From a virus (taxonomy: Duplodnaviria; Caudoviricetes), in the IMG/VR virus record IMGVR_UViG_3300010347_000503, positions 1 to 64,000 of that record: a DNA stretch of 64,000 bases. One strand, written 5' to 3'. The translations under genes were made by a program, and so were the position numbers. How positions within the stretch are numbered: the first letter of the stretch is position 1; each line of letters begins with the position of its first letter. Below, one piece after another: positions 2,718 through 47,415 of this stretch. Below the pieces are notes generated by a model. The model did no database searches and was not told the DNA's origin. It saw only the letters and a list, made by a program, of their open reading frames with translations.

Positions 2718-3125
2718 ATGAGAATTTGGGAAGAAATCGAAAAGCACTTACAGTTAGCACAGAATACCCCCTATGGGAAAGATGCTTTAGAGCATTACAA
2801 AAAAGCAAGAGCATTATACGAGGTTTTCCTTGTAGAGAATGAGCAAAAATGGGAAGACTACAAAAAACAGTTTGATGAAACAGAAAAGTACCCCGCTACC
2901 GCAAAAAATAGGAGGGCGCTGAAAATGACAAAAATAAATTACGGATACTACAAATACTGTAAGAAAAGCGGATGGGCGTCCGAGTTGGCGCTGAAAATGG
3001 CAAAGGAAATTTACGGATACTACAGATACTATAGGAAAAGCGGATGGGCGCCCAAACTGGCGCTGAAAATGGCAAAAGATGAGTGGGCACTTTGGCAGAA
3101 ATTAAGAAAGGCGCTGGGGGAATAA
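2718..3125 (+). CDS. Hypothetical protein with an internal 24-aa tandem repeat (YGYY..Y.KSGWA..LALKMAK)
   Basis: RBS GAGAGG; the repeat is visible in both protein and DNA. Confidence 0.75.
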   Translation: MRIWEEIEKHLQLAQNTPYGKDALEHYKKARALYEVFLVENEQKWEDYKKQFDETEKYPATAKNRRALKMTKINYGYYKYCKKSGWASELALKMAKEIYGYYRYYRKSGWAPKLALKMAKDEWALWQKLRKALGE

Positions 3126-3869
3126 CCCCCAGCACCACCACAAAAGAAGAGGAGAAAAGAGGATGGCATACATAGTAAAAATCAATACTGAAGTTGGGCA
3201 TAAGAGTTTGACAATCATAGCAAACAGCAAGGAGGAAGCCGAAACAAAAGCAAAAGAAAATAAAGACTACCGAGGCACGATAGATGTGCGGTTGTGGGAA
3301 CCGGTATATTTTGAATAAACAGGTAACAGGCGGGGTGCGGTTCCCGCCTTTCCTATCGTCTTATGCCCGAACGTCCGTTCGGGCACGAATTATTATTATA
3401 CTACAGGTCGTCGCATTTTGTCAAGAGATTTTTTGTAAATTTTTTTTAAATTTTTTATCCCAAAATCGGCAGCAGGATTAGTCATAACTAACTTAAATTA
3501 GATTAGACTAACCGAGGTTAGTCGCAACTAACCGGCTCAGCTCGAATTTGCGCGAGCACCCCATTTCATTATAACATCAAAACGAAAATTTGTCAATAGG
3601 TTTTTGAAAAATTTTCCTAAAAATATTTTTACTTTTTCTATTGACATTTATTGCCTTTTGTAGTATAATAAAATAAAAACCCTCTTACAGATCCGCAAGA
3701 GGGTCTCTCCTTTATTATACCATGGAAATGATATTTTTGTCAATAGTTTTTTGAAAACTTTTTTTAAGAAAATTTTTGAAAAACTTATTGACTTATTACT
3801 ATAATGTGATATACTTATATCATAACAAGGGGATACAGTAAGCCCCACAGATAAGGAAGAGAGGTATAG

Positions 3870-31116: not shown

Positions 31117-31127
31117 GTTAATATAAT

Positions 31128-31218
31128 AGGGGTGTAGCATAATGGTTAATGCAGCTGTCTCTAAAACAGCCAGGTGCGTCCAAACCACCGGATGTGGGTT
31201 TAAATCCTACCACCCCTG
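31128..31218 (+). tRNA. Amber suppressor tRNA (CTA), long variable arm (Ser/Tyr-like)
   Basis: GCTGT-CTCTAAA-ACAGC gives anticodon CTA; discriminator G. Confidence 0.8.
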
Positions 31219-31220
31219 TA

Positions 31221-31334
31221 TCGAGAGGTAGTTTAATGGCAGAACGCTGTTTTTGAATTTAGAAATAAATTTTTACAGCAGTTTCTTTTTGCTTGGGGAG
31301 CCGGTAATGCAGGTTTGAATCCTGCCCTTTCGAT
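31221..31334 (+). tRNA. tRNA-Pro(GGG) interrupted by a 41-nt insert (31250-31290) in the anticodon stem
   Basis: Removing the insert yields CTGGC-TTGGGGA-GCCGG. Confidence 0.6.
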
Positions 31335-32922: not shown

Positions 32923-33228
32923 ATGATAGTAGCTATTCACGTATATATGGAAACATTTCATGGATTTCATGAACTAGATGATTATACTATTAAAAAAGTA
33001 AATGATGTTTTTGAAGCAGATGACCTAGCGAATAATATATGCGAAATTATTATTAAAAAATGTATTGATGATGAATATGATATTAATGATTGTGATATTG
33101 ATTATGAAATTTATGAATTAGAGTTAGATAAACTACCTATTGGAAAAGAACTTTGTGATTTAGCTCAAAATTTTTCTCTTGATAAAGGTAATTTTTTAAA
33201 AATGTATAATGCAAAAAGGTTGTTTTAA
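32923..33228 (+). CDS. Hypothetical acidic protein (paralog of 28876-29178)
   Basis: MIVAIHVYME... Confidence 0.7.
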   Translation: MIVAIHVYMETFHGFHELDDYTIKKVNDVFEADDLANNICEIIIKKCIDDEYDINDCDIDYEIYELELDKLPIGKELCDLAQNFSLDKGNFLKMYNAKRLF

Positions 33229-33285
33229 AAAATTATTTGATATTTTTAAAAATTTATGATATAATAAATATGTAATAAAAAAGAA

Positions 33286-33347
33286 AAGGCACCTACAGCA
33301 AATTTATTTTATACTTCTACTTTTAATAGTAAATTTTGTGCCTTGAC
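33286..33347 (+). ncRNA. ACAGCAA-stem element (Y-RNA-like family)
   Basis: AAGGCAC/GTGCCTT stem with CTACAGCAA directly inside. Confidence 0.4.
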
Positions 33348-33350
33348 AAT

Positions 33351-34091
33351 CGGGGTGTAAGTCAGTTGGTAGACTGCGTGATTTGGTAAAAAAACTTTAA
33401 TATAACTCCAAATAAACCATGGATGAAACACTTATTCGTGGCGATGTAAATGAACTCCAATGTATTTTAGACTTCCAAAAAAGAGGGTATTATTGCAGTA
33501 TTCCTTTCAGCGGTTCTTGTAGATACGATGTAGTTGTAGATATAAATAATAAATTATATCGTATTCAATGTAAATCATCTACTTTTCATGAAGAAGATGG
33601 AACATTAAGAATGTATGCTATTAGAACTACAACAAATACTCAAAAAACAATAAGGTATTCCTATTCAAAAGAAGAAGTAGATTTCTTTTATACAAGTTGG
33701 AATAATTATGGCTTTTTAATTCCTGTGAATGAAGTTTCAACGACTAAATATTTAAGAGTAAAAAAGCCAAAAAATGGAATACAAGAGGGGATGTCTATTG
33801 CTGCTGATTATCTTATTGACAATGTTTTAGAAGCTATTGTTAATAATAAATCAATCAGTAAATATCAAGATAATAGATTTATTTCATGGAAAGAAAATGA
33901 ACTTGAAAAAGTTTGGTCTGTTGATGAATTAAAATCTGTTTATCAAGATAGACAAATAAGATATATAAAGGAGTGCATCGCAAACAACAAAATGGCTTAT
34001 CAATATAATTGGAAGTATAAGGAGTTCCCTGAGTTATAAGAGTATTTTTTACTGGATCACGATGCCGTGGGTTCGAGTCCCGCCACCCCGA
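33351..34091 (+). tRNA. tRNA-Pro(TGG) split by a 668-nt insert (33387-34054) at the anticodon
   Basis: 5' half CGGGGTG...CGTGATTTGG and 3' half GATCACG...GTTCGAGTCC...CACCCCGA join into a canonical tRNA-Pro. Confidence 0.85.
33419..34039 (+). CDS. PD-(D/E)XK homing endonuclease-like protein (I-Ssp6803I/PDDEXK_5-like) inside the tRNA-Pro insert
   Basis: GDVNE...RYDVVVD.....RIQCKS pattern. Confidence 0.75.
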   Translation: MDETLIRGDVNELQCILDFQKRGYYCSIPFSGSCRYDVVVDINNKLYRIQCKSSTFHEEDGTLRMYAIRTTTNTQKTIRYSYSKEEVDFFYTSWNNYGFLIPVNEVSTTKYLRVKKPKNGIQEGMSIAADYLIDNVLEAIVNNKSISKYQDNRFISWKENELEKVWSVDELKSVYQDRQIRYIKECIANNKMAYQYNWKYKEFPEL

Positions 34092-34283
34092 TTAACCTTT
34101 TTGCTATTCAGCACCTTAAAATAAGGTATAGGTTAAAATATAATTTTTTAAGCGAAAATTATATTTCAAGGAAATTGTGAATATTGGTGGAAAAAATATC
34201 TATAAATGATATTTAAAAGAAAGCTCTATGGCTTAGATAGAGATCAATGAAATCACCAATACAAACTTTCTTTTAAATATTAT

Positions 34284-34356
34284 AGCTCATTAGCAGAATG
34301 GAATATGCGGGCGCCTCAAAAGTGTCAATTTCTGGGTTCGAATCCCAGATGGGCTA
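34284..34356 (+). tRNA. tRNA with CAA (Leu) anticodon and short variable arm
   Basis: GGCGC-CTCAAAA-GTGTC; canonical T arm. Confidence 0.65.
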
Positions 34357-37267: not shown

Positions 37268-38828
37268 ATGAACACTTTTTTGAATGAAATGAAGAACGCT
37301 TCTAACTATGCAGTAACAGAGAACGGGGCTTTAGCACATAAAACCACACGTTCCGCAGTTTACGATATGTTTGCTCTTGGCGGTGCTTACCGCAAGAGAA
37401 GTGATGAAGACTGTATTCTCTTATTCAAGAACGCTCTTGAAGAGAATGAGACTCTGGCATTGAAGTGTCTGTTTTATTTACGTGATTGCCGCGGAGGTAA
37501 GCTCTTTGCCTAGCCTCCCTATATAGTGATATATAGTAAAAAATTCTGTGAACCCAAGCAAAAGGGGTGTCAGATTTAATCTGGCTAACGGTTCAGAAGA
37601 TAGAAATATCGTTATGAGTAAGGGAACCTAAGTCTTATAAAGATATGGTAATACCGTGCCAAGCTACATTTGGTCAATTTTATAAAAATATTTTCTTATT
37701 ATTTTAATATCTCTATGTAAGATTAGAACAGGGAGAAAAAATATGGGATATATTTATAAAATTGAAAACTTAATAAATCATAAAATTTATATTGGGCAAA
37801 CTACTAAAGAACGACCTACTGATAGATTTAGTCAGCATCGTTATTTAACTAGGCATCCAGAACAAGAAACTTCTATTAGTTATCTTCATAGAGCGATGAA
37901 TAAATATGGGGTAGAGAATTTTTCTTTTGAAATTATTGAAGAAATTGAAGATAATCTTCTTAATGAGAGAGAGCAATATTGGATAAAAGAAAAAGAATCT
38001 TTAATGCCAAATGGCTATAATATGACAATAGGTGGAGAAGGAACCATAGGATATTCAAGAATTCAATCTAAAGAAGAAAAAATGAAAAGAAGTAAATCAG
38101 TAAAAAAATTTTATGAGAATAATCCAGAAGCTATTAAAAAATTAAGAGAAAGAACTTTATCTTTATGGCAAGATGAAGAATACAGAAAACGAGTGACGGA
38201 AAGTAATAAAAAATTTTATTCTGAACATCCTGATAAATTTAAAGGAGAAAATAATCCAATGTATGGTAAACATCATACAGAAGAATCATTAGAAAAAATT
38301 CGTAACCATGCCGCAACTCGAAAAAATAAAATTGCCCAATTAGATAAAGACACTTTAGAAATTATTAACATTTATGATGGAATAAAAGATGCTGAAAAAG
38401 CGTTAGGTGTTGGTCATGGATGGATATCTAAAGCGGCAAGACAAGATAAAATTGCTTATGGATACAAATGGAAACTTATGTAGAAGGTGTAACGACTAAT
38501 ATGTAGAATAGAGATTAGCACTATTCGAAGCGCAGAACTCTTTCTTAATTTTGGTTAAGAGAGATGAAGAGATAGTCTGCGAAATTATGAAAATAATTTT
38601 ATCGCCGTGCAGGGTGAAAGACGCTTCTTCCGCGTTTGCTATAAGTGGTTAGCTACTAAACACGCAGATATTGCTCGTAAATACATTGAGTGCATCCCAT
38701 ATTATGGACGCTATGATGATATTTATTGCTTATTTAATACTCCTCTTGAACAAGATGCTTTAGCTTTTATTAAAAAAGAAATTGATAATGGCTTAGAAAT
38801 TTTAGGTGCGTTAGATGAGTTGGGATAA
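37268..38828 (+). CDS. rsr: Ro60/TROVE N-terminal part; exons 37268-37498 and 38610-38828
   Basis: TENGALAH..T, LFYLRDCRGG|QGERRFF and YGRYDD TROVE motifs; in frame after splicing. Confidence 0.85.
37499..38609 (+). mobile_element. Group I intron carrying a homing endonuclease
   Basis: P1 GGAGGT/GCCTCC with a U.G splice pair; core AATACCGTGCCAAGC, GTAACGACT and AAGAGATAGTCT; terminal G38609. Confidence 0.9.
37743..38483 (+). CDS. GIY-YIG homing endonuclease (NUMOD-type C-terminal modules)
   Basis: GYIYKIENLINHKIYIGQT; ENNPMYGKHHTEES. Confidence 0.9.
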   Translation: MGYIYKIENLINHKIYIGQTTKERPTDRFSQHRYLTRHPEQETSISYLHRAMNKYGVENFSFEIIEEIEDNLLNEREQYWIKEKESLMPNGYNMTIGGEGTIGYSRIQSKEEKMKRSKSVKKFYENNPEAIKKLRERTLSLWQDEEYRKRVTESNKKFYSEHPDKFKGENNPMYGKHHTEESLEKIRNHAATRKNKIAQLDKDTLEIINIYDGIKDAEKALGVGHGWISKAARQDKIAYGYKWKLM

Positions 38829-38847
38829 AAGTAAAAGGAGAATAAGT

Positions 38848-39903
38848 ATGGAAAATAATACAGGATTAATTTTTAAATGGTTAAAGTCAGAAAATGCTTC
38901 TTCTAAAGAAAAAGCAATAGCTGTAAAAATAAGAAAATATCTTGGAATGACACATAAAGAATATAGAAAAATGCTTTCTTACGGAAGAGAAAAGACAAAT
39001 GTTTTAGAAAAATTAATGTCTTCAAATGAGTGGAATAAAATAGACTTTTCTAAAATCCCTTCTAAGGCTGGTTTAATCTATAAGAATGCATTCGCAAGAC
39101 GAGATATTATTGCAAAGAAGTATGAAGATTTTGCAAAAGATAAGAATACTACAGTTAATGCTGCGACTTTATATCCTTATGAAGTTGTTGCTAAAGCAAT
39201 TGATACTTTTGGCTGGAGTTGTTGGGATAGAGGAACAGCAACTGAAACGGATAGAGCTATGATTGAAAAATATTGGAATAATCTTACAGATTATTTTAAT
39301 GGAAAACAGTCTAATATGCTTTGCGTAGTAGATACTTCAGGTTCTATGCACGGAACTCCTATTAATGTAGCTATTTCTCTTGGTATTTATTGTGCAGAGC
39401 GAGCTGGCGGTCCTTTTAAAGATCACTATATTAGTTTTAGTTCTCGTCCGCAGTTAATTAAGGTTGAAGGTGTTGATTTTGTAGATAAGGTTAAACGCAT
39501 CTATCTAACAAATTTGTGTGCGAATACTAATCTTACACGCACTTTCGATATGCTTCTTGAAATTGCAAACCGCCCTGGAGTAAAAGAGGAAGATATTCCA
39601 GAAACTATCTGTGTAATTAGTGATATGGAAATTGATTGCATGTCAAATTGGGGTTCTTCTAATACACAGACTGAAATGGAAAAAGTAAGAGAGAAATGGG
39701 CTAGATATGGACATAAACTTCCTAAGTTAGTATACTGGAATGTCGATGCTCGTAATAATATTATCTTGGATGGCGGTCCGGATGTTACATTCGTATCTGG
39801 TATGAGTCCAGTCATTTTCGAGAATGTCTTGACAGGTAAAACTGGTTGGGATTTATGTCTTGAGAAATTGCTTTCTAAGAGATATGAAGCTATCACTGCT
39901 TAA
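38848..39903 (+). CDS. rsr: Ro60/TROVE C-terminal part with vWA domain
   Basis: KWLKSENASS, VVDTSGSM MIDAS and ISDME; own RBS AAGGAG. Confidence 0.85.
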   Translation: MENNTGLIFKWLKSENASSKEKAIAVKIRKYLGMTHKEYRKMLSYGREKTNVLEKLMSSNEWNKIDFSKIPSKAGLIYKNAFARRDIIAKKYEDFAKDKNTTVNAATLYPYEVVAKAIDTFGWSCWDRGTATETDRAMIEKYWNNLTDYFNGKQSNMLCVVDTSGSMHGTPINVAISLGIYCAERAGGPFKDHYISFSSRPQLIKVEGVDFVDKVKRIYLTNLCANTNLTRTFDMLLEIANRPGVKEEDIPETICVISDMEIDCMSNWGSSNTQTEMEKVREKWARYGHKLPKLVYWNVDARNNIILDGGPDVTFVSGMSPVIFENVLTGKTGWDLCLEKLLSKRYEAITA

Positions 39904-39977
39904 TATAATATAATAAATAATAAATAAAAGGAAGGTTTGACCTTCCTTTTTAATTTTATACAAAGGAGGTACTATTG

Positions 39978-40835
39978 ATGATAATAAGTTCTTTAGCTAA
40001 AACTGTGATTATTTCCCCTAACAAAAGTATAAGACAACAAAATAAATATTATTGTAAAATAGATACAATAACAATTCATGTCATGGCGGGAAATCTTTCT
40101 GTAGAAACTTGCGGAAATGTATTTAAAGATCCAAAAAGACAAGCTTCTTCTAATTATGGCGTAGATAGTAAGGGCAATATTGCTTGTTATGTTCCAGAAG
40201 AATATAGATCTTGGGCAACAAGTAATAAACCAAATGATTATCGTGCTATTACAATAGAAGTAGCTAATGATAAAGGAAAACAAACTGGATATCATGTAAC
40301 TGATACAGCATTAAATTCTTTAGTAACTTTAATTGCCGATATCTGCAAAAGAAATGGCATTAAAAAATTAATTTGGTCTGATAATAAAAACAATAGAGTA
40401 AATCATTTAAATGGTTGTAATATGACTGTTCATAGAGATTATGCTGCGAAAGCTTGTCCTGGAGATTACTTAATGAGTAAGCATCCTTGGATTGCAGAAA
40501 GTGTTAATAATTTGCTTGCGGGAGCCCCTGTTCCAGTCCCCGCCCCATCAAATTATATATATGAAAATATTGATTACACTTCTGTTTTTGATCCAGTATT
40601 TTATTCTAATAAATATTCAGATTTAAAAGCGGCTTTTGGTAATAATACTACTTTACTATTTAATCATTTTATTAAAAATGGAATAAAAGAAGCAAGACAA
40701 GCTATTACAACTTTCGATCCAAAAATATATAGACAGAAATATCCAGATTTAAATGCTGCTTTTGGAAATAATTGGGAATATTATTACAAACATTATTGCA
40801 CAATAGGCAGAAATGAAGGTAGAACAGGAATTTAA
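39978..40835 (+). CDS. N-acetylmuramoyl-L-alanine amidase (Amidase_2 endolysin) with C-terminal binding repeats
   Basis: ITIHVMAG, ASSNYGVD, SWAT, ITIEVAN and HRDYAAKACPG. Confidence 0.85.
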   Translation: MIISSLAKTVIISPNKSIRQQNKYYCKIDTITIHVMAGNLSVETCGNVFKDPKRQASSNYGVDSKGNIACYVPEEYRSWATSNKPNDYRAITIEVANDKGKQTGYHVTDTALNSLVTLIADICKRNGIKKLIWSDNKNNRVNHLNGCNMTVHRDYAAKACPGDYLMSKHPWIAESVNNLLAGAPVPVPAPSNYIYENIDYTSVFDPVFYSNKYSDLKAAFGNNTTLLFNHFIKNGIKEARQAITTFDPKIYRQKYPDLNAAFGNNWEYYYKHYCTIGRNEGRTGI

Positions 40836-40837
40836 TA

Positions 40838-40872
40838 ATGCGGGAGATGGAACTCCATCTCCCGCATTTTTT
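40838..40872 (+). terminator. Intrinsic terminator
   Basis: ATGCGGGAGATGG-AACT-CCATCTCCCGCAT followed by a T-run. Confidence 0.8.
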
Positions 40873-40942
40873 ATTACTATTGATTTTTATTAAAATTTTT
40901 GATATAATATATATAAATAAAAAAGAAAGAAGATGTTTATTG

Positions 40943-41716
40943 ATGGGAAGAACATTTGTCAGTAGTGATTGGCATGGATGTGAAGTAGCTAAAAAAGTAT
41001 TTGATTTTCTTAAGCCAGATGATACTTTATATTTTCTTGGAGATGCAGCAGATCGAGGTCCAATTGGTGCTGAATTAATAGAAAATATATTGAATGATAA
41101 TAGAATAATTTATCTTAAAGGAAATCATGAAGAATTTTTTATTGAATGTATGTTAAATATTTATGATACTAATTATGTAGGTGGCATGAATGGTGTCTGG
41201 TATTATCGAAATGGTGGAGAATCTACAATTGATGCCTTTATAGATAAAAAGAAATACACAAGAGAGCAGATAATTAGTATTATTGAAAAAATTAAAAAAC
41301 TTCCTACAGTATGTAATTACAGAAATAAAAAAGGTAATAATATTATCCTTGAACATGCAGGATATACTCCTTGGGAGTTTAAAAAAATGCAACGTCACGA
41401 TCCGCTTTGGGATAGAACTCATTTTTTCGATGCTTATGATCAAAAGGGTGCTAACACTTATATTATTCATGGTCATACGCCAGTTCAATATCTTCAATTT
41501 TATTATGGTTATATAGATCAACCTAAAAGAACTATTGAAGATTTAGAAATAAAAAAAGCTTGGGAAAATGATGAACCAATGGGGAATTGGAAACCTACTA
41601 TTCTTCATTATTGTAATAGACATAAAATTGATATTGATATGTGTACTATTACTAGTAATAGAGTCGCATTATTAGATCTTGATACTTTTGAAGAAATTTA
41701 TTTTGATGCAGATTAA
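40943..41716 (+). CDS. Calcineurin-like metallophosphoesterase (Ser/Thr phosphatase-like)
   Basis: SDWHG, LGDAADRG, KGNHE and HGHTP. Confidence 0.9.
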   Translation: MGRTFVSSDWHGCEVAKKVFDFLKPDDTLYFLGDAADRGPIGAELIENILNDNRIIYLKGNHEEFFIECMLNIYDTNYVGGMNGVWYYRNGGESTIDAFIDKKKYTREQIISIIEKIKKLPTVCNYRNKKGNNIILEHAGYTPWEFKKMQRHDPLWDRTHFFDAYDQKGANTYIIHGHTPVQYLQFYYGYIDQPKRTIEDLEIKKAWENDEPMGNWKPTILHYCNRHKIDIDMCTITSNRVALLDLDTFEEIYFDAD

Positions 41717-41734
41717 ATGAAAGGAGAATAAAAT

Positions 41735-42157
41735 ATGGGACTTGACAATGGTATTATTATTCGTGGAAAAACTGAAAAAGGAACAAATTATCTTAAAAAT
41801 AATTTTAGTAATTGTTATGATAAATATATCGAAGGTTTTGAGTTTGGCTATTGGAGAAAATGCTGGAATATAAGAAGAAAATTTATTGATGACTTTGGCT
41901 ATGATACTGAAAGACAAGAAATAAAATTTGAATTAGATGATATTCCTCTTATTATAGAAACTCTTAAATATTTTCTTAATGAAGATAATTGGGAGTATGG
42001 TAAATGTTATTCTCAAGTTTTTAGTTGGATTGAAGAACTTCCTAGTATCGCAAATGCTATGCAAAATCTTTGGAGATTTTATGATAATTTAGATATTGAT
42101 CCAAACAATGAATTAACAGATGAAGATTTTGAAATTTATTTTTATGATAGTTATTAA
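41735..42157 (+). CDS. Hypothetical protein (MGLD..., YWRK)
   Basis: RBS AAGGAG. Confidence 0.75.
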   Translation: MGLDNGIIIRGKTEKGTNYLKNNFSNCYDKYIEGFEFGYWRKCWNIRRKFIDDFGYDTERQEIKFELDDIPLIIETLKYFLNEDNWEYGKCYSQVFSWIEELPSIANAMQNLWRFYDNLDIDPNNELTDEDFEIYFYDSY

Positions 42158-42192
42158 ATAAAAGTGATTTTATAATAAAAGGAGAATGATTT

Positions 42193-43452
42193 ATGATAAA
42201 TAGAAATACTCAGATGCGCGAACTCGCATACGTCGTTACGGTTGACGCAGTAGAGCCTATTTCTGGTCGTGACCGTGTAGAATGTGCTAGAGTAGGTGGT
42301 TGGACTTGTATGGTTCCAAAGGGTGCATTTAAAGCTGGTGATCCGGGTATCTATTTTGAGATTGACTCTCAGGTTCCTGTAGATAAAGATCCGTTTAAGT
42401 TCTGTGAGAAATATAAGGGACGCATTAAGACTCAGAAATTCAAGACCCCGGATGGTCAGTTCTGGTCTCAAGGTCTCTTAATGGCTGCCGCAGATTTTGG
42501 TTGGACTACTGATTTTGCTCAGTTTGCTGGAGATTTTGGTTTTATTGTAGATGATAAGGGCGTGCAGCATATTCCTGGAGAAGAGTCTGCATTTTTAACT
42601 ACTCAGCTTGGCGTAACTTATTATGAGATAGAGGACCAGAAGCGGAAGGCTGCATCTACTGTTGATAAGTATAAGAAAATGGCTGGACGTCATCCACAGC
42701 TTTTCAAGAACAATGCTATTGTAAAATGGCTTTATAAGCGGAATTGGGGTAAAAAGCTGCTGTTTGTTTTCTTTGGAAAGAAAAAGGACAAGACTGCGTG
42801 GCCGCAGTGGGTAGTTAAAACGGACGAGGAACGCGTTCAAAATATTCCTTTTATACTCCAGAGTGATATTCCTTGGTACGCAACTGAGAAGATCGATGGA
42901 ACCAGCACAACTTTCACTATGAAAGGAAGAGGACGCAAAAGAGAGTTTTATATCTGTTCTCGTAATGTATGTTTTGATACTCCTGAGAAGATGGAAAAGG
43001 GTGCTTGGTACGATACCAATGTATATCAAGAGATGGCGATTAAATACAATGTAGAGCAGGTACTTGCAGATATTATGGATTTATTCAAGGATCTTGAGTT
43101 CGTAACTCTTCAGGGTGAGACCTTCGGGGCTGGTATTCAGAAGAGAGATTACGGAATGAAGGATCATGATTTCCGCGCTTTCAATCTGATCTTCGGTTAT
43201 AAGAATGGAGAAAAAGAGCGTTTTAATCCGCGGAGAATGACTGACTTCCTTAAACAATTCGGTATTCCTTCTGTGCCGATTGTAGATGAACATTTCATTC
43301 TTCCGGATACTGTTGAAGAGCTGCTTAATATTGCAACTGACAAATCTGAAATTGATGGCGGAATGCGGGAAGGTTTAGTATTCCGTTCTGCAGATGGCAC
43401 TCAGAGTTTTAAAGCAGTATCTAATGAATTTTTATTGAAATATCATCAGTAA
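42193..43452 (+). CDS. ATP-dependent RNA ligase (Rnl2/DRB0094-like)
   Basis: N-terminal OB-like module; TEKIDGTS (motif I), QGETFG, FNL, REGLVF and FKAVSNEFLLK. Confidence 0.85.
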   Translation: MINRNTQMRELAYVVTVDAVEPISGRDRVECARVGGWTCMVPKGAFKAGDPGIYFEIDSQVPVDKDPFKFCEKYKGRIKTQKFKTPDGQFWSQGLLMAAADFGWTTDFAQFAGDFGFIVDDKGVQHIPGEESAFLTTQLGVTYYEIEDQKRKAASTVDKYKKMAGRHPQLFKNNAIVKWLYKRNWGKKLLFVFFGKKKDKTAWPQWVVKTDEERVQNIPFILQSDIPWYATEKIDGTSTTFTMKGRGRKREFYICSRNVCFDTPEKMEKGAWYDTNVYQEMAIKYNVEQVLADIMDLFKDLEFVTLQGETFGAGIQKRDYGMKDHDFRAFNLIFGYKNGEKERFNPRRMTDFLKQFGIPSVPIVDEHFILPDTVEELLNIATDKSEIDGGMREGLVFRSADGTQSFKAVSNEFLLKYHQ

Positions 43453-43582
43453 TAAAAATGGCGGGAACCGGGTCTAGACCCGCTCCCGCATTTCTTCTTT
43501 TAATACTCTTTTTTTATTTTTTATAAAATTTATGATATAATATATATATATAATAAAAAATAAAGAAAGAGGTGTTTATCAT

Positions 43583-43891
43583 TTGACAAAAAATAAAATG
43601 ATTCAAAGTGAGTTCTATTGTACTAAATGCGGTAAAAAAGGACTTCCAGTTTGGCGCAGGAAAGGTGACGCAAGAGAAGATGGACATTTAAAAGCATTAT
43701 ATTGTCTATTTTGTAATGATTATACAAACCATGTTGAATGTAAACCTAATACTCCATATTCTTTTGAAGATTTTAAATTAGAATATGAATATAATAATTT
43801 CACAAAAGATGGTTTAAGAATTTATACTTTAAAACAATTAAAAAATTTAGTTAGAGAAGAGAAAATTGAAAAAGTGAGGGAATTAAAATGA
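43583..43891 (+). CDS. Zinc-binding hypothetical protein
   Basis: CTKCG...GHLKALYCLFC. Confidence 0.7.
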   Translation: MTKNKMIQSEFYCTKCGKKGLPVWRRKGDAREDGHLKALYCLFCNDYTNHVECKPNTPYSFEDFKLEYEYNNFTKDGLRIYTLKQLKNLVREEKIEKVRELK

Positions 43892-44409
43892 AAAAATTAT
43901 TTATTATGGTAGGCTGCCCAGGATGCGGGAAATCTACTTATTTAAAAAATAATGAAAAATTCTTCCATAAATCTCATATTATAATTTCAAGAGATGAAAT
44001 AAGATTTTCTCTTTTAAAAGAAGGAGATTCTTATTTTTCAAAAGAAGATATAGTATATAAAGAATTTATTAAACAAATTAAAGCTGGATTAAAAATTTAT
44101 GAAGAAGTATATGTCGATGCAACTCATTTAAATGTGAGTTCCCGCAAAAAATTATTTTATGCTTTAGGTGATGCTATTAAAAATGTAGAACTTTATGCTA
44201 TTGTCATAAAAGTACCTCTTGAACAAGCACTTGTGCAAAATCAAAAAAGATTTGGAACAAAAACATATGTGCCAGAAGAAGCTCTGCGGAATATGTATAA
44301 AAATTTTATGCTTCCTACTTTAAATGAAGGATTTAAAGAAATTTGGTTATATATTTCAGAAGGTATTGATAAACCTTGTCATTTTCAAAATATTAGAAAA
44401 AGATTTTAA
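43888..44409 (+). CDS. P-loop kinase (AAA_33, polynucleotide-kinase-like)
   Basis: GCPGCGKST, SRDEIR, DAT and RKKL. Confidence 0.8.
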   Translation: MKKLFIMVGCPGCGKSTYLKNNEKFFHKSHIIISRDEIRFSLLKEGDSYFSKEDIVYKEFIKQIKAGLKIYEEVYVDATHLNVSSRKKLFYALGDAIKNVELYAIVIKVPLEQALVQNQKRFGTKTYVPEEALRNMYKNFMLPTLNEGFKEIWLYISEGIDKPCHFQNIRKRF

Positions 44410-44426
44410 AAAGGGATAGAGATAAT

Positions 44427-44609
44427 ATGAAAACAAAATTAGATAAAGAAAGAAAATATGCTTTTTGGTTAAGATTTGATCAGAAAAATTTTACAGGAAT
44501 TTATAAATGTCCTGATTGTGGAAAAGAATATACTTTTAAAGAAGCAACTGGAAAAGAAAAAAATCAAATTGGACATAATTGTCCTCATTGTGGAGTAAAA
44601 TTGAATTGA
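44427..44609 (+). CDS. Zinc-ribbon protein
   Basis: CPDCG...CPHCG. Confidence 0.7.
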   Translation: MKTKLDKERKYAFWLRFDQKNFTGIYKCPDCGKEYTFKEATGKEKNQIGHNCPHCGVKLN

Positions 44610-44746
44610 ATTAAGGAGAAAAATTACAACTGACTAACATTTTTTATAAATGCTGGTCAGTTGTAAGCAACAGTAAATGCAAGAATACGCAATGGATAGG
44701 ATAGCATAAAAGCTATTACTACTCCTTTAAGGAGGTGATTTAAAAA

Positions 44747-45309
44747 ATGAGTGCTATATACCTTACATCGGATTGGCACTTTGGTTAACAGGCCATGACC
44801 GAGACTTTATCTATCAACCTCGCGGATTTAGTTCCATGGACGAGATGAATGAAGAAATAATTACTAGATATAATGAAATTGTTAAGCCAGAAGATGATGT
44901 ATATGTACTTGGTGATTTAATGCTTGGTAATAATGAAATTGGTCTCAAATGTATTAAAAATCTTAAAGGTAATATTCATGTCATCCGCGGAAATCATGAT
45001 ACTAATACTAGAATGGATCTTTATAATAATTGCTATAATATAGTAGAAATTTGTGAAGGTAAGTTTTTAAACTATAAAGATTATCATTTTTATCTTAGTC
45101 ATTATCCTTGTTTGGCAAGTTATTATGATGAGCATAGTCCAGTTAAGCTTAAGCGAAAAATGACTAGTCTATGTGGTCATAAGCATACTCAAAATGCTTT
45201 TGAAGATTTTGATAAGGGATTGATTTATCATTGTGAAGTAGATGCACATGATTGTTATCCCGTTTCTATTGAAGAAATTATTAAAGATATAAAGGAGATT
45301 ATTATATGA
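44747..45309 (+). CDS. Metallophosphoesterase interrupted after codon 13 by GGT-TAA-CA-GGC
   Basis: RBS AAGGAGG, then MSAIYLTSDWHFG*; HDRDF...LGD...GNHD...SHYP...CGHKH continues in another frame. Confidence 0.75.
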
Positions 45310-45578
45310 ATAAACTATCATCAAAAGATACAAAATTTTCTGAGGCTGTTGCATTTCTTATTACTGCGATAATTATAAGTATCATTTCACCATTCCTTGT
45401 TTTTTGGATAAGCTATATTATAGGATATTTTGTAAAATGGACAATTGGAAATATTTTAATACAAGGACTTATGTTATTTAATATTAATATACCCATTGAA
45501 AAGATTCCATTGGTTTGCGGTGTACTAGGTTTTATTTCAAGTTATTTTAATACTACTATTCAAAATAAATCTAACTAA
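45306..45578 (+). CDS. Membrane protein
   Basis: Multiple hydrophobic segments; RBS AAGGAG. Confidence 0.7.
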   Translation: MNKLSSKDTKFSEAVAFLITAIIISIISPFLVFWISYIIGYFVKWTIGNILIQGLMLFNINIPIEKIPLVCGVLGFISSYFNTTIQNKSN

Positions 45579-45684
45579 ATAAATAAAAGGCTTAATTAAA
45601 AATATTAAGCCTTTTTATTTTGACTTTTTAAAAAATTTATGTTATAATTAAGATAATAATATAAATATAAGAAAGGAATATTTT

Positions 45685-46113
45685 ATGAAATTTATTTCTG
45701 CTGACTATAATAAAGAAAATGGTCACTCAACAGTTATAGTGCAACATTTAGGGAAAAAATTTGTCGGTGAAGGAAGATTTAATCCAGAAGATAAATCTGG
45801 AGCATCTGAATTTGCTGGTTGCACTTATGCAGAAACAAGAGCAACTATCAAAGCTCTTAAATATGAACTTAATATTGCTAAAAATAAAATGCGGGAAGCA
45901 CAAGATTTCGTAAAATCTTGTGAATGTTATAAAGATTTTGATCCAAATTCTTCTAGCGCAAAAGTTTTTTATAGACAATTAAATCGAAGAATTAAAAGAG
46001 TAGAAGATTTAAAGAATGAAATTAAAACAATGCAGCTCTCTTTAAAAGCTTCTATTGAAGCTAGATATAATAAAATTATGAAGATTTTAGAGAAAAAAGA
46101 CAAAAAAGGTTAA
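45685..46113 (+). CDS. Hypothetical protein
   Basis: Promoter and RBS. Confidence 0.75.
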   Translation: MKFISADYNKENGHSTVIVQHLGKKFVGEGRFNPEDKSGASEFAGCTYAETRATIKALKYELNIAKNKMREAQDFVKSCECYKDFDPNSSSAKVFYRQLNRRIKRVEDLKNEIKTMQLSLKASIEARYNKIMKILEKKDKKG

Positions 46114-46179
46114 TTTATTTAGTCCATTTTTTTATATCTTTATAGAAATTAACCTTTAAAACGAAAGGTGGACTTATAA

Positions 46180-47415
46180 ATGATAAAATTTTATGACACA
46201 TGTAGTTTGTTGGAACTTCAAGAGGAAGTATTCAACGATTCCAAGTTTTATATCTCCAGCATTACTCTTTCTGAACTGGAACAGATAAAAACCTCTGGAA
46301 CAAGAGATGAAGAAATTAAGTGGAAAGCGCGGCAGGTGCTTAACTGTCTCCGTCAACATAAACAATCTTATGAAATTATTATTTTTGACAAAGAAGTTGA
46401 AGCATATTTAGATGATTTACAATTAATTTCTAATAATGATAATAAAATAATCGTTTCTGCATATATGCGAAATCAGAATGAGCCTATTACTTTTGTAACT
46501 AATGATTTAGCTTGTGAAGCAATCGCTAATTCAGTTGGTTTAAAAACAGAAATGATTTCTGATAACATTGTAGATGATGATTACACTGGATATAAAATAA
46601 TTAAATTATCTGATGAAGAATTAGCTGATTTTTATATGCATATTCTTCAAGAAAATCAGAATAAATATAATTTATTAACAAATGAATATCTTTTAATTAA
46701 AGATAGTAATAATCATATAGTTGATAAATATAGATGGAATAATAAATATGAAAGTATTGGTTTTATTAAAGCAGAGTCTAAAATGTTTGGTAAAGTAACA
46801 CCAAAAGATGATTTACAATTACTTGCATTAGATGCATTAAATAATAATCAAATTACTATGCTTAGAGGCCCCGCGGGAAGTGGTAAATCTCACCTGGCTT
46901 TTGGATATATGTTTTCTTTATTGGATCAAGGTAAGATTGGAAAAATAATTATTTTCTGCAATACTGTTGCAACAAAAGGATCAGCTAAATTAGGCTACTA
47001 CCCTGGTTCCCGCACAGAAAAATTACTTGATAGTCAAATTGGTAATTTTCTTGAAAGCAAATTAAGTAGTCGTATTGAAGTAGAGCGTTTAATTGAAGAT
47101 GGAAGTCTCATTTTACTTCCTATGAGTGACATTCGTGGTTATGACACAACAGGAATGAATGCCGCAATTTATATCACTGAGGCACAAAATCTTGATATTG
47201 AACTAATGAAACTCGCTCTTCAACGTATTGGTGAAGACTCTATATGTATCCTTGATGGTGATGATAAAACTCAGGTTGATATGTCAATGTATGCGGGAAG
47301 TCATAATGGCATGAAGAGAGTGAGTAAAATATTTAGGGGTGCTGATTTCTATGGCGAGATCGCTCTCCAAAAAATCCATAGATCAAAAATTGCAGAATTG
47401 GCTCAACAATTATAA
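46180..47415 (+). CDS. phoH: PIN-PhoH (PhoH2-like) ATPase/RNase
   Basis: N-terminal FYDT..., NDNKII, VTND (PIN); GPAGSGKS, RG, TEAQN and GD..QVD. Confidence 0.85.
   Translation: MIKFYDTCSLLELQEEVFNDSKFYISSITLSELEQIKTSGTRDEEIKWKARQVLNCLRQHKQSYEIIIFDKEVEAYLDDLQLISNNDNKIIVSAYMRNQNEPITFVTNDLACEAIANSVGLKTEMISDNIVDDDYTGYKIIKLSDEELADFYMHILQENQNKYNLLTNEYLLIKDSNNHIVDKYRWNNKYESIGFIKAESKMFGKVTPKDDLQLLALDALNNNQITMLRGPAGSGKSHLAFGYMFSLLDQGKIGKIIIFCNTVATKGSAKLGYYPGSRTEKLLDSQIGNFLESKLSSRIEVERLIEDGSLILLPMSDIRGYDTTGMNAAIYITEAQNLDIELMKLALQRIGEDSICILDGDDKTQVDMSMYAGSHNGMKRVSKIFRGADFYGEIALQKIHRSKIAELAQQL

Follow-up and report, generated by a model that had tools for sequence, protein, structure and literature searches.

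A mobile homing endonuclease gene without a ribozyme in the anticodon loop of a phage tRNA-Pro gene

The stretch of DNA analysed here, called the window throughout, is the first 64 kb (64,000 nucleotides, nt) of the 90.9-kb viral record IMGVR_UViG_3300010347_000503 (Caudoviricetes), which is approximately 58 % complete by the CheckV estimate. In its transfer RNA (tRNA) island, at approximately 27.7-37 kb, a tRNA-Pro(UGG) gene is interrupted within the anticodon loop by an insert that consists almost entirely of an open reading frame (ORF) for a predicted homing endonuclease, and the two ends of the insert can pair with one another, and with the anticodon, as a long rod. The features of the locus are as follows.

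33237..33265, + strand: promoter-like site, TTGATA-17-TGnTATAAT, with 11 of 12 matches, approximately 85 nt upstream of the tRNA.
33351..33386, + strand: 5′ exon of tRNA-Pro(UGG), nt 1-36, ending in the anticodon TGG at 33384-33386.
33387..34054, + strand: mobile insert of 668 nt between tRNA nt 36 and 37, a junction rule backed by the empty-site comparison given below.
33387..33398, + strand: 5′ arm of the rod (TAAAAAAACTTT), which pairs with 34039-34051.
33419..34039, + strand: ORF of 206 aa, with 32 nt of insert before it and 15 nt after it; residues 7-132 are the PD-(D/E)XK domain.
34039..34051, + strand: 3′ arm of the rod (AGAGT-A-TTTTTTA), which overlaps the last base of the stop codon.
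34052..34054, + strand: anti-anticodon CTG, the last three insert bases, which pair with G36, G35 and U34 (C-G, U.G and G.U).
34055..34091, + strand: 3′ exon of tRNA-Pro(UGG), nt 37-73.

When the two tRNA-Pro halves are joined in silico, a 73-nt canonical cloverleaf is formed, with the acceptor stem CGGGGTG/CACCCCG, the anticodon arm CGTGA-TTTGGGA-TCACG and the T arm GTGGG-TTCGAGT-CCCGC; all 17 of the 17 pairs of the acceptor, anticodon and T stems are intact. A preliminary description of the window, made from its letters alone, had reported that the halves make an exact tRNA-Pro(TGG) and that the insert of 668 nt is nearly all ORF, with 32 nt before and 15 nt after it, and each of these numbers is correct. 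Based on the window alone, the junction has a one-base ambiguity, being either 35/36 or 36/37. The latter is the sole junction that fits both 27 related loci and the comparison of empty and filled sites in cultured phages. A promoter scan listed no + strand site from the tRNA promoter to the start of the ORF, so that the ORF and the tRNA probably share one precursor transcript.

The product of the ORF matches the Pfam family PDDEXK_5 (PF11645) over residues 7-132 (E = 1.5e-24; 87 bits, where the cut-off is 26.1), and by sequence it matches I-Ssp6803I (PDB 2OST; phmmer, E = 7.8e-7). An AlphaFold model built on 42 homologues has a mean pLDDT (predicted local distance difference test) of 87.6, and its top Foldseek matches are chains A-D of 2OST (E = 6e-10; template modelling score 0.76 by target), followed by archaeal Hjc Holliday-junction resolvases; there is no tRNA-splicing endonuclease among the structural matches listed. 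Residues Y36, D37, D41, Q50 and K52 (YD...D...QxK) are invariant in the 42 homologues. A C-terminal extension of approximately 65 aa, including RQIRYIKE and WKYKEFP, is conserved, has no structural match, and is missing from a short form of the protein (141-152 aa). Sequence and modelled fold together confirm the earlier identification of the ORF as a predicted homing endonuclease of the I-Ssp6803I, or PD-(D/E)XK, family.

Over 33200-34250, no group I, group II or small ribozyme was matched in an Rfam scan up to E = 10, nor was a group I or group II core, or any other ribozyme, up to E = 0.1 in 16 related loci (52 kb). This bears out the earlier claim that there is no room for such a core, for which a check with Infernal models had been proposed. 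Only 47 nt of the window insert are outside the ORF. In short-form inserts, which are 463-506 nt, all but approximately 45 nt are ORF, therefore there is no room in them for a known ribozyme core. Group I introns have as hallmarks a conserved U ending the 5′ exon, which forms a U.G pair in P1, and a G as the last intron base. These are missing across the family, in which the last base is G, T or C for the 5′ exons and G, A, T or C for the inserts. Group II introns have domains I-VI, including domain V, and usually a reverse-transcriptase ORF; here there is no Rfam match and the ORF encodes a PD-(D/E)XK nuclease, not a reverse transcriptase.

Other known classes of element are likewise not supported. 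A transposon or insertion sequence was rejected, since the ORF has no transposase domain (Pfam) and the insertion is exact, without duplication or deletion, when the cultured phage EFP01 is compared with its relative iF6. The tail of the insert was considered as a target-site duplication; this was rejected because in a direct-repeat model the loop is always 6 nt, and the tail copies the anticodon in inverted orientation. The long duplex had been said not to be a bulge-helix-bulge, and this stands: the helix is continuous across both junctions, which are within it and 3 bp apart, and no alternative, bulged pairing fits. An EndA-type endonuclease (PF01974) was not found in five phage records, two of which are complete.

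A protein search identified 221 homologues, of which the best 120 are 66-100 % identical to the query and nearly all 204-209 aa in length. Scans of viral and metagenome contigs identified approximately 40 distinct loci, apparently from rumen samples and human-gut assemblies. For the junctions, all possibilities were enumerated with ARAGORN, each tRNA being anchored on its T loop, and a single rule, that the insert is exactly at 36/37, fits 25 loci, two that were placed by hand, and the cultured case. Eight tRNA classes are split: Pro(UGG), Pro(CGG), Arg(ACG), Thr(UGU), Glu(UUC), Lys(UUU), Gln(UUG), and Asn(GUU). More than 120 protein clusters belong to the long form in tRNA-Pro by itself. The clades of a nuclease-domain tree track the isoacceptor (Pro long form, Pro short form, Arg-ACG, Thr-UGU, and Lys with Asn), and the free-standing copies of loci L046 and L020 branch beside or within the Pro long-form clade. 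Free-standing copies adjoin intact tRNAs and retain, without a tRNA, a stem that encloses the ORF; this is a 14-bp perfect inverted repeat in the L003/L020 copy and a 7-bp stem over an AAGGAGA ribosome-binding site in the L046 copy. Since these copies keep the stem, it would appear to serve the endonuclease gene itself. No description of this insert family was found in the literature, where the nearest are the 'enigmatic' tRNA introns of Lak phages.

Two further groups of loci were seen beside the family. A separate PF11645 clade, 31-36 % identical, is present at L040:2392-3008, in L041, and as two tandem copies in L042; it has an 85-nt conserved leader and seems to be inserted in tRNA-Thr(CGU)-like genes at approximately nt 26/27, where the anticodon stem follows the D arm, a site unlike 36/37. 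An odd tRNA-Pro-like lineage, with A33 (loop YATGGRA) and only three T-stem pairs, is present in L018/L002 at approximately 2930-3680 and in L046 upstream of 2501. This gene is split by the endonuclease in L018, and is intact in L046, where the endonuclease is free-standing approximately 30 nt downstream.

The 17-bp duplex of the preliminary description is real, and is longer than reported, at approximately 22 pairs with one 1x1 mismatch. Both the rod and the acceptor, D, and T arms are present in the minimum-free-energy fold of the whole 741-nt precursor. The 5′ arm and the bases next to it make up the motif AACTTTAATAYAA, which is conserved in long-form relatives. Across 27 loci and eight anticodons, pairing between the anticodon and the three terminal bases of the insert (G.U allowed) is seen in 80 of 81 cells. 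When the tails are shuffled among the loci, 49.8 +/- 4.0 cells are paired and none of 20000 shuffles reaches 80; the pairing of anticodon and tail is beyond chance. The tail is CTG or CTA with Pro TGG, CGT with Arg ACG, ACA with Thr TGT, GAA with Glu TTC, AAA with Lys TTT, CAG with Gln TTG, and AGC with Asn GTT. Further into the insert, i1 and i-4 form a pair in all 27 loci, with four types of pair among them, and pairing also predominates at i2-i5. Beyond a small conserved internal loop there is a second short helix, and although it extends over the final codons and the stop codon of the ORF, its pairs covary (TTGC/GCAA, TGGC/GCCA, CTGC/GCAG, CCGC/GCGG, TCAA/TTGA). Because G.U pairs are frequent in the rod, the constraint on it is one on the RNA, not on the DNA.

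A search for insert-less alleles in related phages, which had been proposed as a check, was successful. Two viral contigs have uninterrupted tRNA-Pro genes that are identical to the window exons over nt 27-65, and the cultured Schiekvirus Enterococcus phage EFP01 (NC_047796.1) provides a direct comparison. EFP01 has an unannotated split tRNA-Asn(GUU) at approximately 105243-105777 (L082:1115-1649), in which the endonuclease, a homologue with 35 % identity, is annotated as 'hypothetical protein' (HOR47_gp109). Joined together, the EFP01 exons are letter for letter the tRNA-Asn of the insert-less phage iF6, from which EFP01 differs by a 463-nt insertion at 36/37 with neither duplication nor deletion. 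Of the 30 cultured Schiekvirus relatives, EFP01 is the only one with the insert; the other 29 matching genomes have the intact gene. The element is thus real, mobile, and without a ribozyme, and belongs to a large and diverse family.

Endonuclease and exon distances are weakly correlated or uncorrelated (Mantel r of 0.37 for the long form, 0.16 for the short form, and -0.01 overall), on which basis co-divergence of the two as a sign of long-term constraint was rejected. The exons therefore seem mostly to be resident alleles that have been invaded, rather than co-evolved passengers, and intact exons beside an intact 620-nt ORF would therefore be expected without selection on the tRNA. This uncoupling fits frequent homing into resident alleles.

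The preliminary description had offered a choice between a protein-spliced intron and a selfish element that kills the tRNA. The evidence leans mildly towards the selfish element, as suggested by the uncoupling of exon and endonuclease, the single carrier among 30 Schiekviruses, and the stems in free-standing copies. It is held here with moderate confidence that the insert is selfish and is not spliced, and that the rod serves expression of the endonuclease and masks the broken anticodon. The enzyme would recognise the near-palindromic anticodon stem-loop DNA of tRNA-Pro in insert-less alleles and would cut around the anticodon; on the insert-less site ...CGTGATTTGGGATCACG... the predicted cuts are at 36/37 on the top strand and at 33/34 on the bottom strand, giving 3-nt 3′ overhangs. 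The cassette would then be copied into the break by recombination, and it always lands exactly between nt 36 and 37. Transcription would be from the tRNA promoter, within the precursor, in which the ends of the insert would pair together and its last three bases with the anticodon, so that the ORF hangs on a rod continuing the anticodon stem. This precursor would not be processed back to a working tRNA and the phage would lose an accessory tRNA. The tRNA-shaped ends and the rod may give the selfish gene a stable, correctly folded, and perhaps translationally restrained transcript, and pairing of the tail would hide the anticodon of the broken tRNA. Since the ORF is probably expressed from the tRNA precursor, a selfish gene would have a reason of its own for a tRNA-shaped, rod-closed transcript. 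The element would persist via repeated homing into intact alleles of co-infecting phages.

Several points weigh against the insert being selfish and unspliced. The role of the rod in endonuclease expression is one that we infer, and pairing in 80 of 81 cells across eight classes seems stronger than a mere stabilising stem needs. The split gene is the only tRNA-Pro in three genomes, these being the record of the window, a complete 181-kb relative, and a 122-kb relative. Seven insert-bearing records encode an RNA ligase, which is of the PF09414 family in the window and five others and is RtcB in EFP01. In the same phage communities there are also ORF-less inserts and a nested tRNA, in which the exons are intact without a selfish drive. 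At L033:4599-4736 and L019:55-201, ORF-less inserts of 61-62 nt (tRNA-Pro UGG) and 73 nt (tRNA-Thr UGU) are present in the anticodon loops of tRNAs that are otherwise perfect. These were considered as simple endonuclease-less derivatives and rejected as such, since the anticodon is unpaired and there is no rod. At L053:1239-1391 (IMGVR_UViG_3300018430_000106) the anticodon loop of one tRNA, probably Arg UCU, contains an entire second tRNA, which by eye is Phe GAA. Release of this nested tRNA by RNase P and RNase Z would leave the outer halves with 3′-OH and 5′-phosphate ends, which could be joined directly by an ATP-dependent RNA ligase. In addition, the main text of a report on Lak megaphages describes conserved tRNA introns, called 'enigmatic', one of which possibly encodes a tRNA (PMC6784885). 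Both the odd inserts and the Lak introns point to an ability of some phages to remove inserts from anticodon loops.

If so, the elements could be widespread mobile phage tRNA introns, ribozyme-less and removed by proteins, the rod being cut with a 3-nt stagger and a phage RNA ligase resealing the ends; this is a tentative proposal and is considered rather unlikely. A structure-specific endonuclease would cut both junctions, the body of the tRNA would hold the halves, and the ligase would reseal the loop. The rod sets both junctions in one helix, three base pairs apart, with 3′ overhangs. The intron may encode its own cutter, the PD-(D/E)XK enzyme, to which the RNA would present a mimic of the DNA target. 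This enzyme is one candidate, as the RNA helix 27-36 / tail+37-43 would copy the left half and the centre of the presumed DNA target, and the junctions coincide with the positions expected of a symmetric cut that is centred on nt 35 and has a 3-nt 3′ stagger. Sealing would be by the PF09414 ligase of the phage, with the kinase and phosphoesterases, or by RtcB in EFP01. The candidate genes in the window are as follows.

42193..43452, + strand: RNA ligase (PF09414, PHA02142 OB domain), candidate sealing enzyme if the tRNA is spliced.
43888..44409, + strand: P-loop kinase (AAA_33, polynucleotide-kinase type), context only.
40838-41716 and 44773-45309: metallophosphoesterases, context only.

At 38815-47415 the window has an RNA-handling cluster made up of a DUF2828/DUF7788 protein, a metallophosphoesterase, the PF09414 ligase, the AAA_33 kinase, a second phosphoesterase, and a PIN-PhoH protein.

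Removal by proteins would account for the constant 36/37 junction and for covariation of the anticodon and tail in eight anticodon classes, and the common G.U pairs of the rod point to selection on RNA rather than DNA. After conceptual splicing the loop is always of 7 nt and contains U33 and, at 37, a purine; the products have 16.92 of 17 stem pairs, compared to 16.70 of 17 in 194 uninterrupted tRNAs of the same loci. The sole tRNA-Pro in three genomes, the ligases of the seven insert-bearing records, in one of which the PF09414 gene is approximately 0.5 kb upstream of the split tRNA, and the ORF-less and tRNA-shaped inserts in neighbouring tRNAs, with the Lak introns as a published parallel in the main text of that report (PMC6784885), are likewise on its side.

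Against splicing, the intact exons can be explained by recent arrival, and the 3-nt stagger of the junctions, which resembles the 3-nt 3′ overhang of the I-Ssp6803I cut on DNA, follows automatically from insertion at 36/37 and a continuous rod, so is not independent evidence. To our knowledge, no bacterial or phage enzyme makes such cuts. RNase III leaves 2-nt overhangs, which in a fully paired helix would give a loop of 6 or 8 nt and never 7; a 7-nt loop needs an odd stagger (1, 3, 5), and RNase III was therefore rejected as the excising enzyme. There is no EndA-type endonuclease in the five phage genomes, and the encoded protein is predicted to fold like the DNA enzymes I-Ssp6803I and Hjc, not like EndA. 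A hydrolytic PD-(D/E)XK cut leaves 3′-OH and 5′-phosphate ends, which RtcB cannot join, making splicing in EFP01 awkward. Nor are the ligases specific to carriers. RtcB was not found in the rumen phages, and as a marker of the insert in Schiekviruses it was rejected: it is present in EFP01 and absent from iF6, but approximately 21 insert-less relatives have it. The PF09414 ligase was rejected as a marker in the same way, being present in an insert-less 240-kb phage.

The window sequence is present in bovine-gut RNA runs. No spliced joint was seen in the Logan contigs of four of these runs over 33200-34300, where much of the ORF is covered and the 5′ exon is uncovered; contigs, as opposed to raw reads, cannot decide splicing. 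In RNA run X5, a 258-nt contig that matches window 34054-34085 contains an uninterrupted tRNA-Pro(UGG), with anticodon and T arms as in the window and a different D arm and acceptor stem. It was considered as a spliced product and rejected, the different arm and stem marking it as an insert-less allele of another phage or organism.

It is very improbable that the insert is a new, very small self-splicing intron, with the conserved internal loops of the rod as its catalytic core and no protein involved. These loops are GCGAUUU opposite AUCUAAAA in the short forms, and AACUU opposite GAGUA/GCAU in the long, Arg, and Thr forms. They are conserved unpaired motifs, flanked at the insert ends by two helices that covary, the distal one despite its overlap with the ORF, and a self-contained mechanism would explain how one mobile unit is found in hosts as different as rumen phages and an Enterococcus phage. 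However, there is no Rfam ribozyme match, the group I hallmarks are missing at the exon and insert ends, and two junctions inside a regular helix are a poor geometry for in-line attack. The motifs also differ between endonuclease clades, and signals for protein binding or translation fit them better than a shared core. Equally implausible is fresh wreckage, a recent landing in which the rod is a functionless accident of anticodon-stem symmetry: although EFP01 shares identical exons with an insert-less relative and exon and endonuclease divergence are uncoupled, it is largely refuted by covariation, because the anti-anticodon and distal helices are within the mobile unit and covary over eight anticodon classes and several deep endonuclease clades, and an accident does not yield 80 of 81 paired cells. 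The probability left beyond these four readings is assigned to mechanisms that have not been thought of.

Among known systems, the tRNA-fMet group I intron of Synechocystis PCC 6803 is 655 nt, with a 150-aa ORF encoding I-Ssp6803I (PMC1995217), the target of which is a 23-bp pseudo-palindrome of near-palindromic anticodon stem-loop DNA (PMC3384342). The window insert is like it in encoding an endonuclease of the same family (PF11645) and in interrupting the anticodon loop. However, the Synechocystis intron has a self-splicing group I core of approximately 200 nt, whereas the window insert has only 47 nt outside its ORF, and short-form inserts approximately 45 nt, without an Rfam match; here, there is also no conserved U or G at the junctions, and the ends form an anticodon-paired rod.

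Archaeal and eukaryotic tRNA introns are removed by an EndA/Sen endonuclease and an RtcB or Trl1 ligase, with the splice sites in two 3-nt bulges around a 4-bp helix. The inserts described here are similar in being beside the anticodon, in having bases that pair with the anticodon and extend its stem, in having no ribozyme, and in that the carrier phages encode RNA ligases of both chemistries. They differ in being at 36/37, not 37/38, in having a continuous helix with 3 bp between the junctions, and in that no EndA homologue was found in the five records. Bacterial 23S rRNA intervening sequences are excised by RNase III, after which the rRNA fragments stay unjoined and function as separate pieces. 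These too are extra segments closed by a long helix, which a double-strand-specific RNase can excise without a ribozyme. Unlike 23S rRNA, a tRNA cut in its anticodon loop cannot work in pieces, and the stagger needed is 3 nt, compared to the 2 nt of RNase III.

T4 SegB is a free-standing homing endonuclease in a phage tRNA cluster. Like it, and like the PF11645 genes of Salmonella phage PM10, L003, and L046, the window element would be selfish, targeted to tRNA regions, and spread by recombination. Those free-standing genes are between tRNA genes and break nothing, whereas the window ORF is inside an anticodon loop. Homing endonuclease genes normally spare the host gene, by being in a self-splicing intron, an intein, or an intergenic place. 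Here, a large and diverse endonuclease family is present naked in tRNA anticodon loops, and its carriers include rumen phages, gut phages, and a cultured Enterococcus phage.

The closest published likeness is to the 'enigmatic' introns of the Lak megaphages (Devoto et al. 2019, PMC6784885), unclassified anticodon-loop inserts in the tRNAs of gut and rumen phages, as far as the main text describes them. The tRNA-shaped Lak insert resembles the nested tRNA of L053; in that main text, the insert described encodes a possible tRNA, and no endonuclease ORF, anticodon-paired rod, or mechanism is mentioned (PMC6784885). New in the present study are the covariation count over eight anticodons, the decoupling of exon and endonuclease, the EFP01 empty-site comparison, the distribution of ligases, and the RNase III geometry argument. 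Sacrifice of the tRNAs would mean that phage tRNA sets are routinely eroded by selfish genes, for which the shape of a tRNA may act as a scaffold for expression. Restoration of the tRNAs would mean that bacteria or their phages own a hitherto undescribed, protein-based route of tRNA splicing, and protein-removed introns would represent the first pathway for tRNA splicing by proteins alone in the bacterial world. EFP01 and its insert-less relatives make the fate of the tRNA testable at the bench.

A number of other features were observed in the tRNA islands. In the window, a 93-nt tRNA at 31127-31219 has the anticodon CUA and a long variable arm, and ARAGORN labels it 'Pyl'. This tRNA is likely to be an amber suppressor, a hint that TAG may be recoded in the phage. 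Beside it, at 31221-31334, there is a 114-nt tRNA-like gene (Infernal tRNA score of 43.8 bits), in which the two arms of the anticodon stem are approximately 24 nt apart and the variable region is 29 nt. Related phage tRNA islands contain a full ROOL RNA (312 bits; L016:2843-3421), a transfer-messenger RNA (78 bits; L039:3023-3347), and weak YrlA-like (Y RNA-like) matches below the gathering score (L016:4584-4687, L034:821-931, and L027:1377-1495). Just past the tRNA island of the window, at 37743-38483, there is a second homing endonuclease, which is free-standing and of the GIY-YIG type, with NUMOD1 and NUMOD3.

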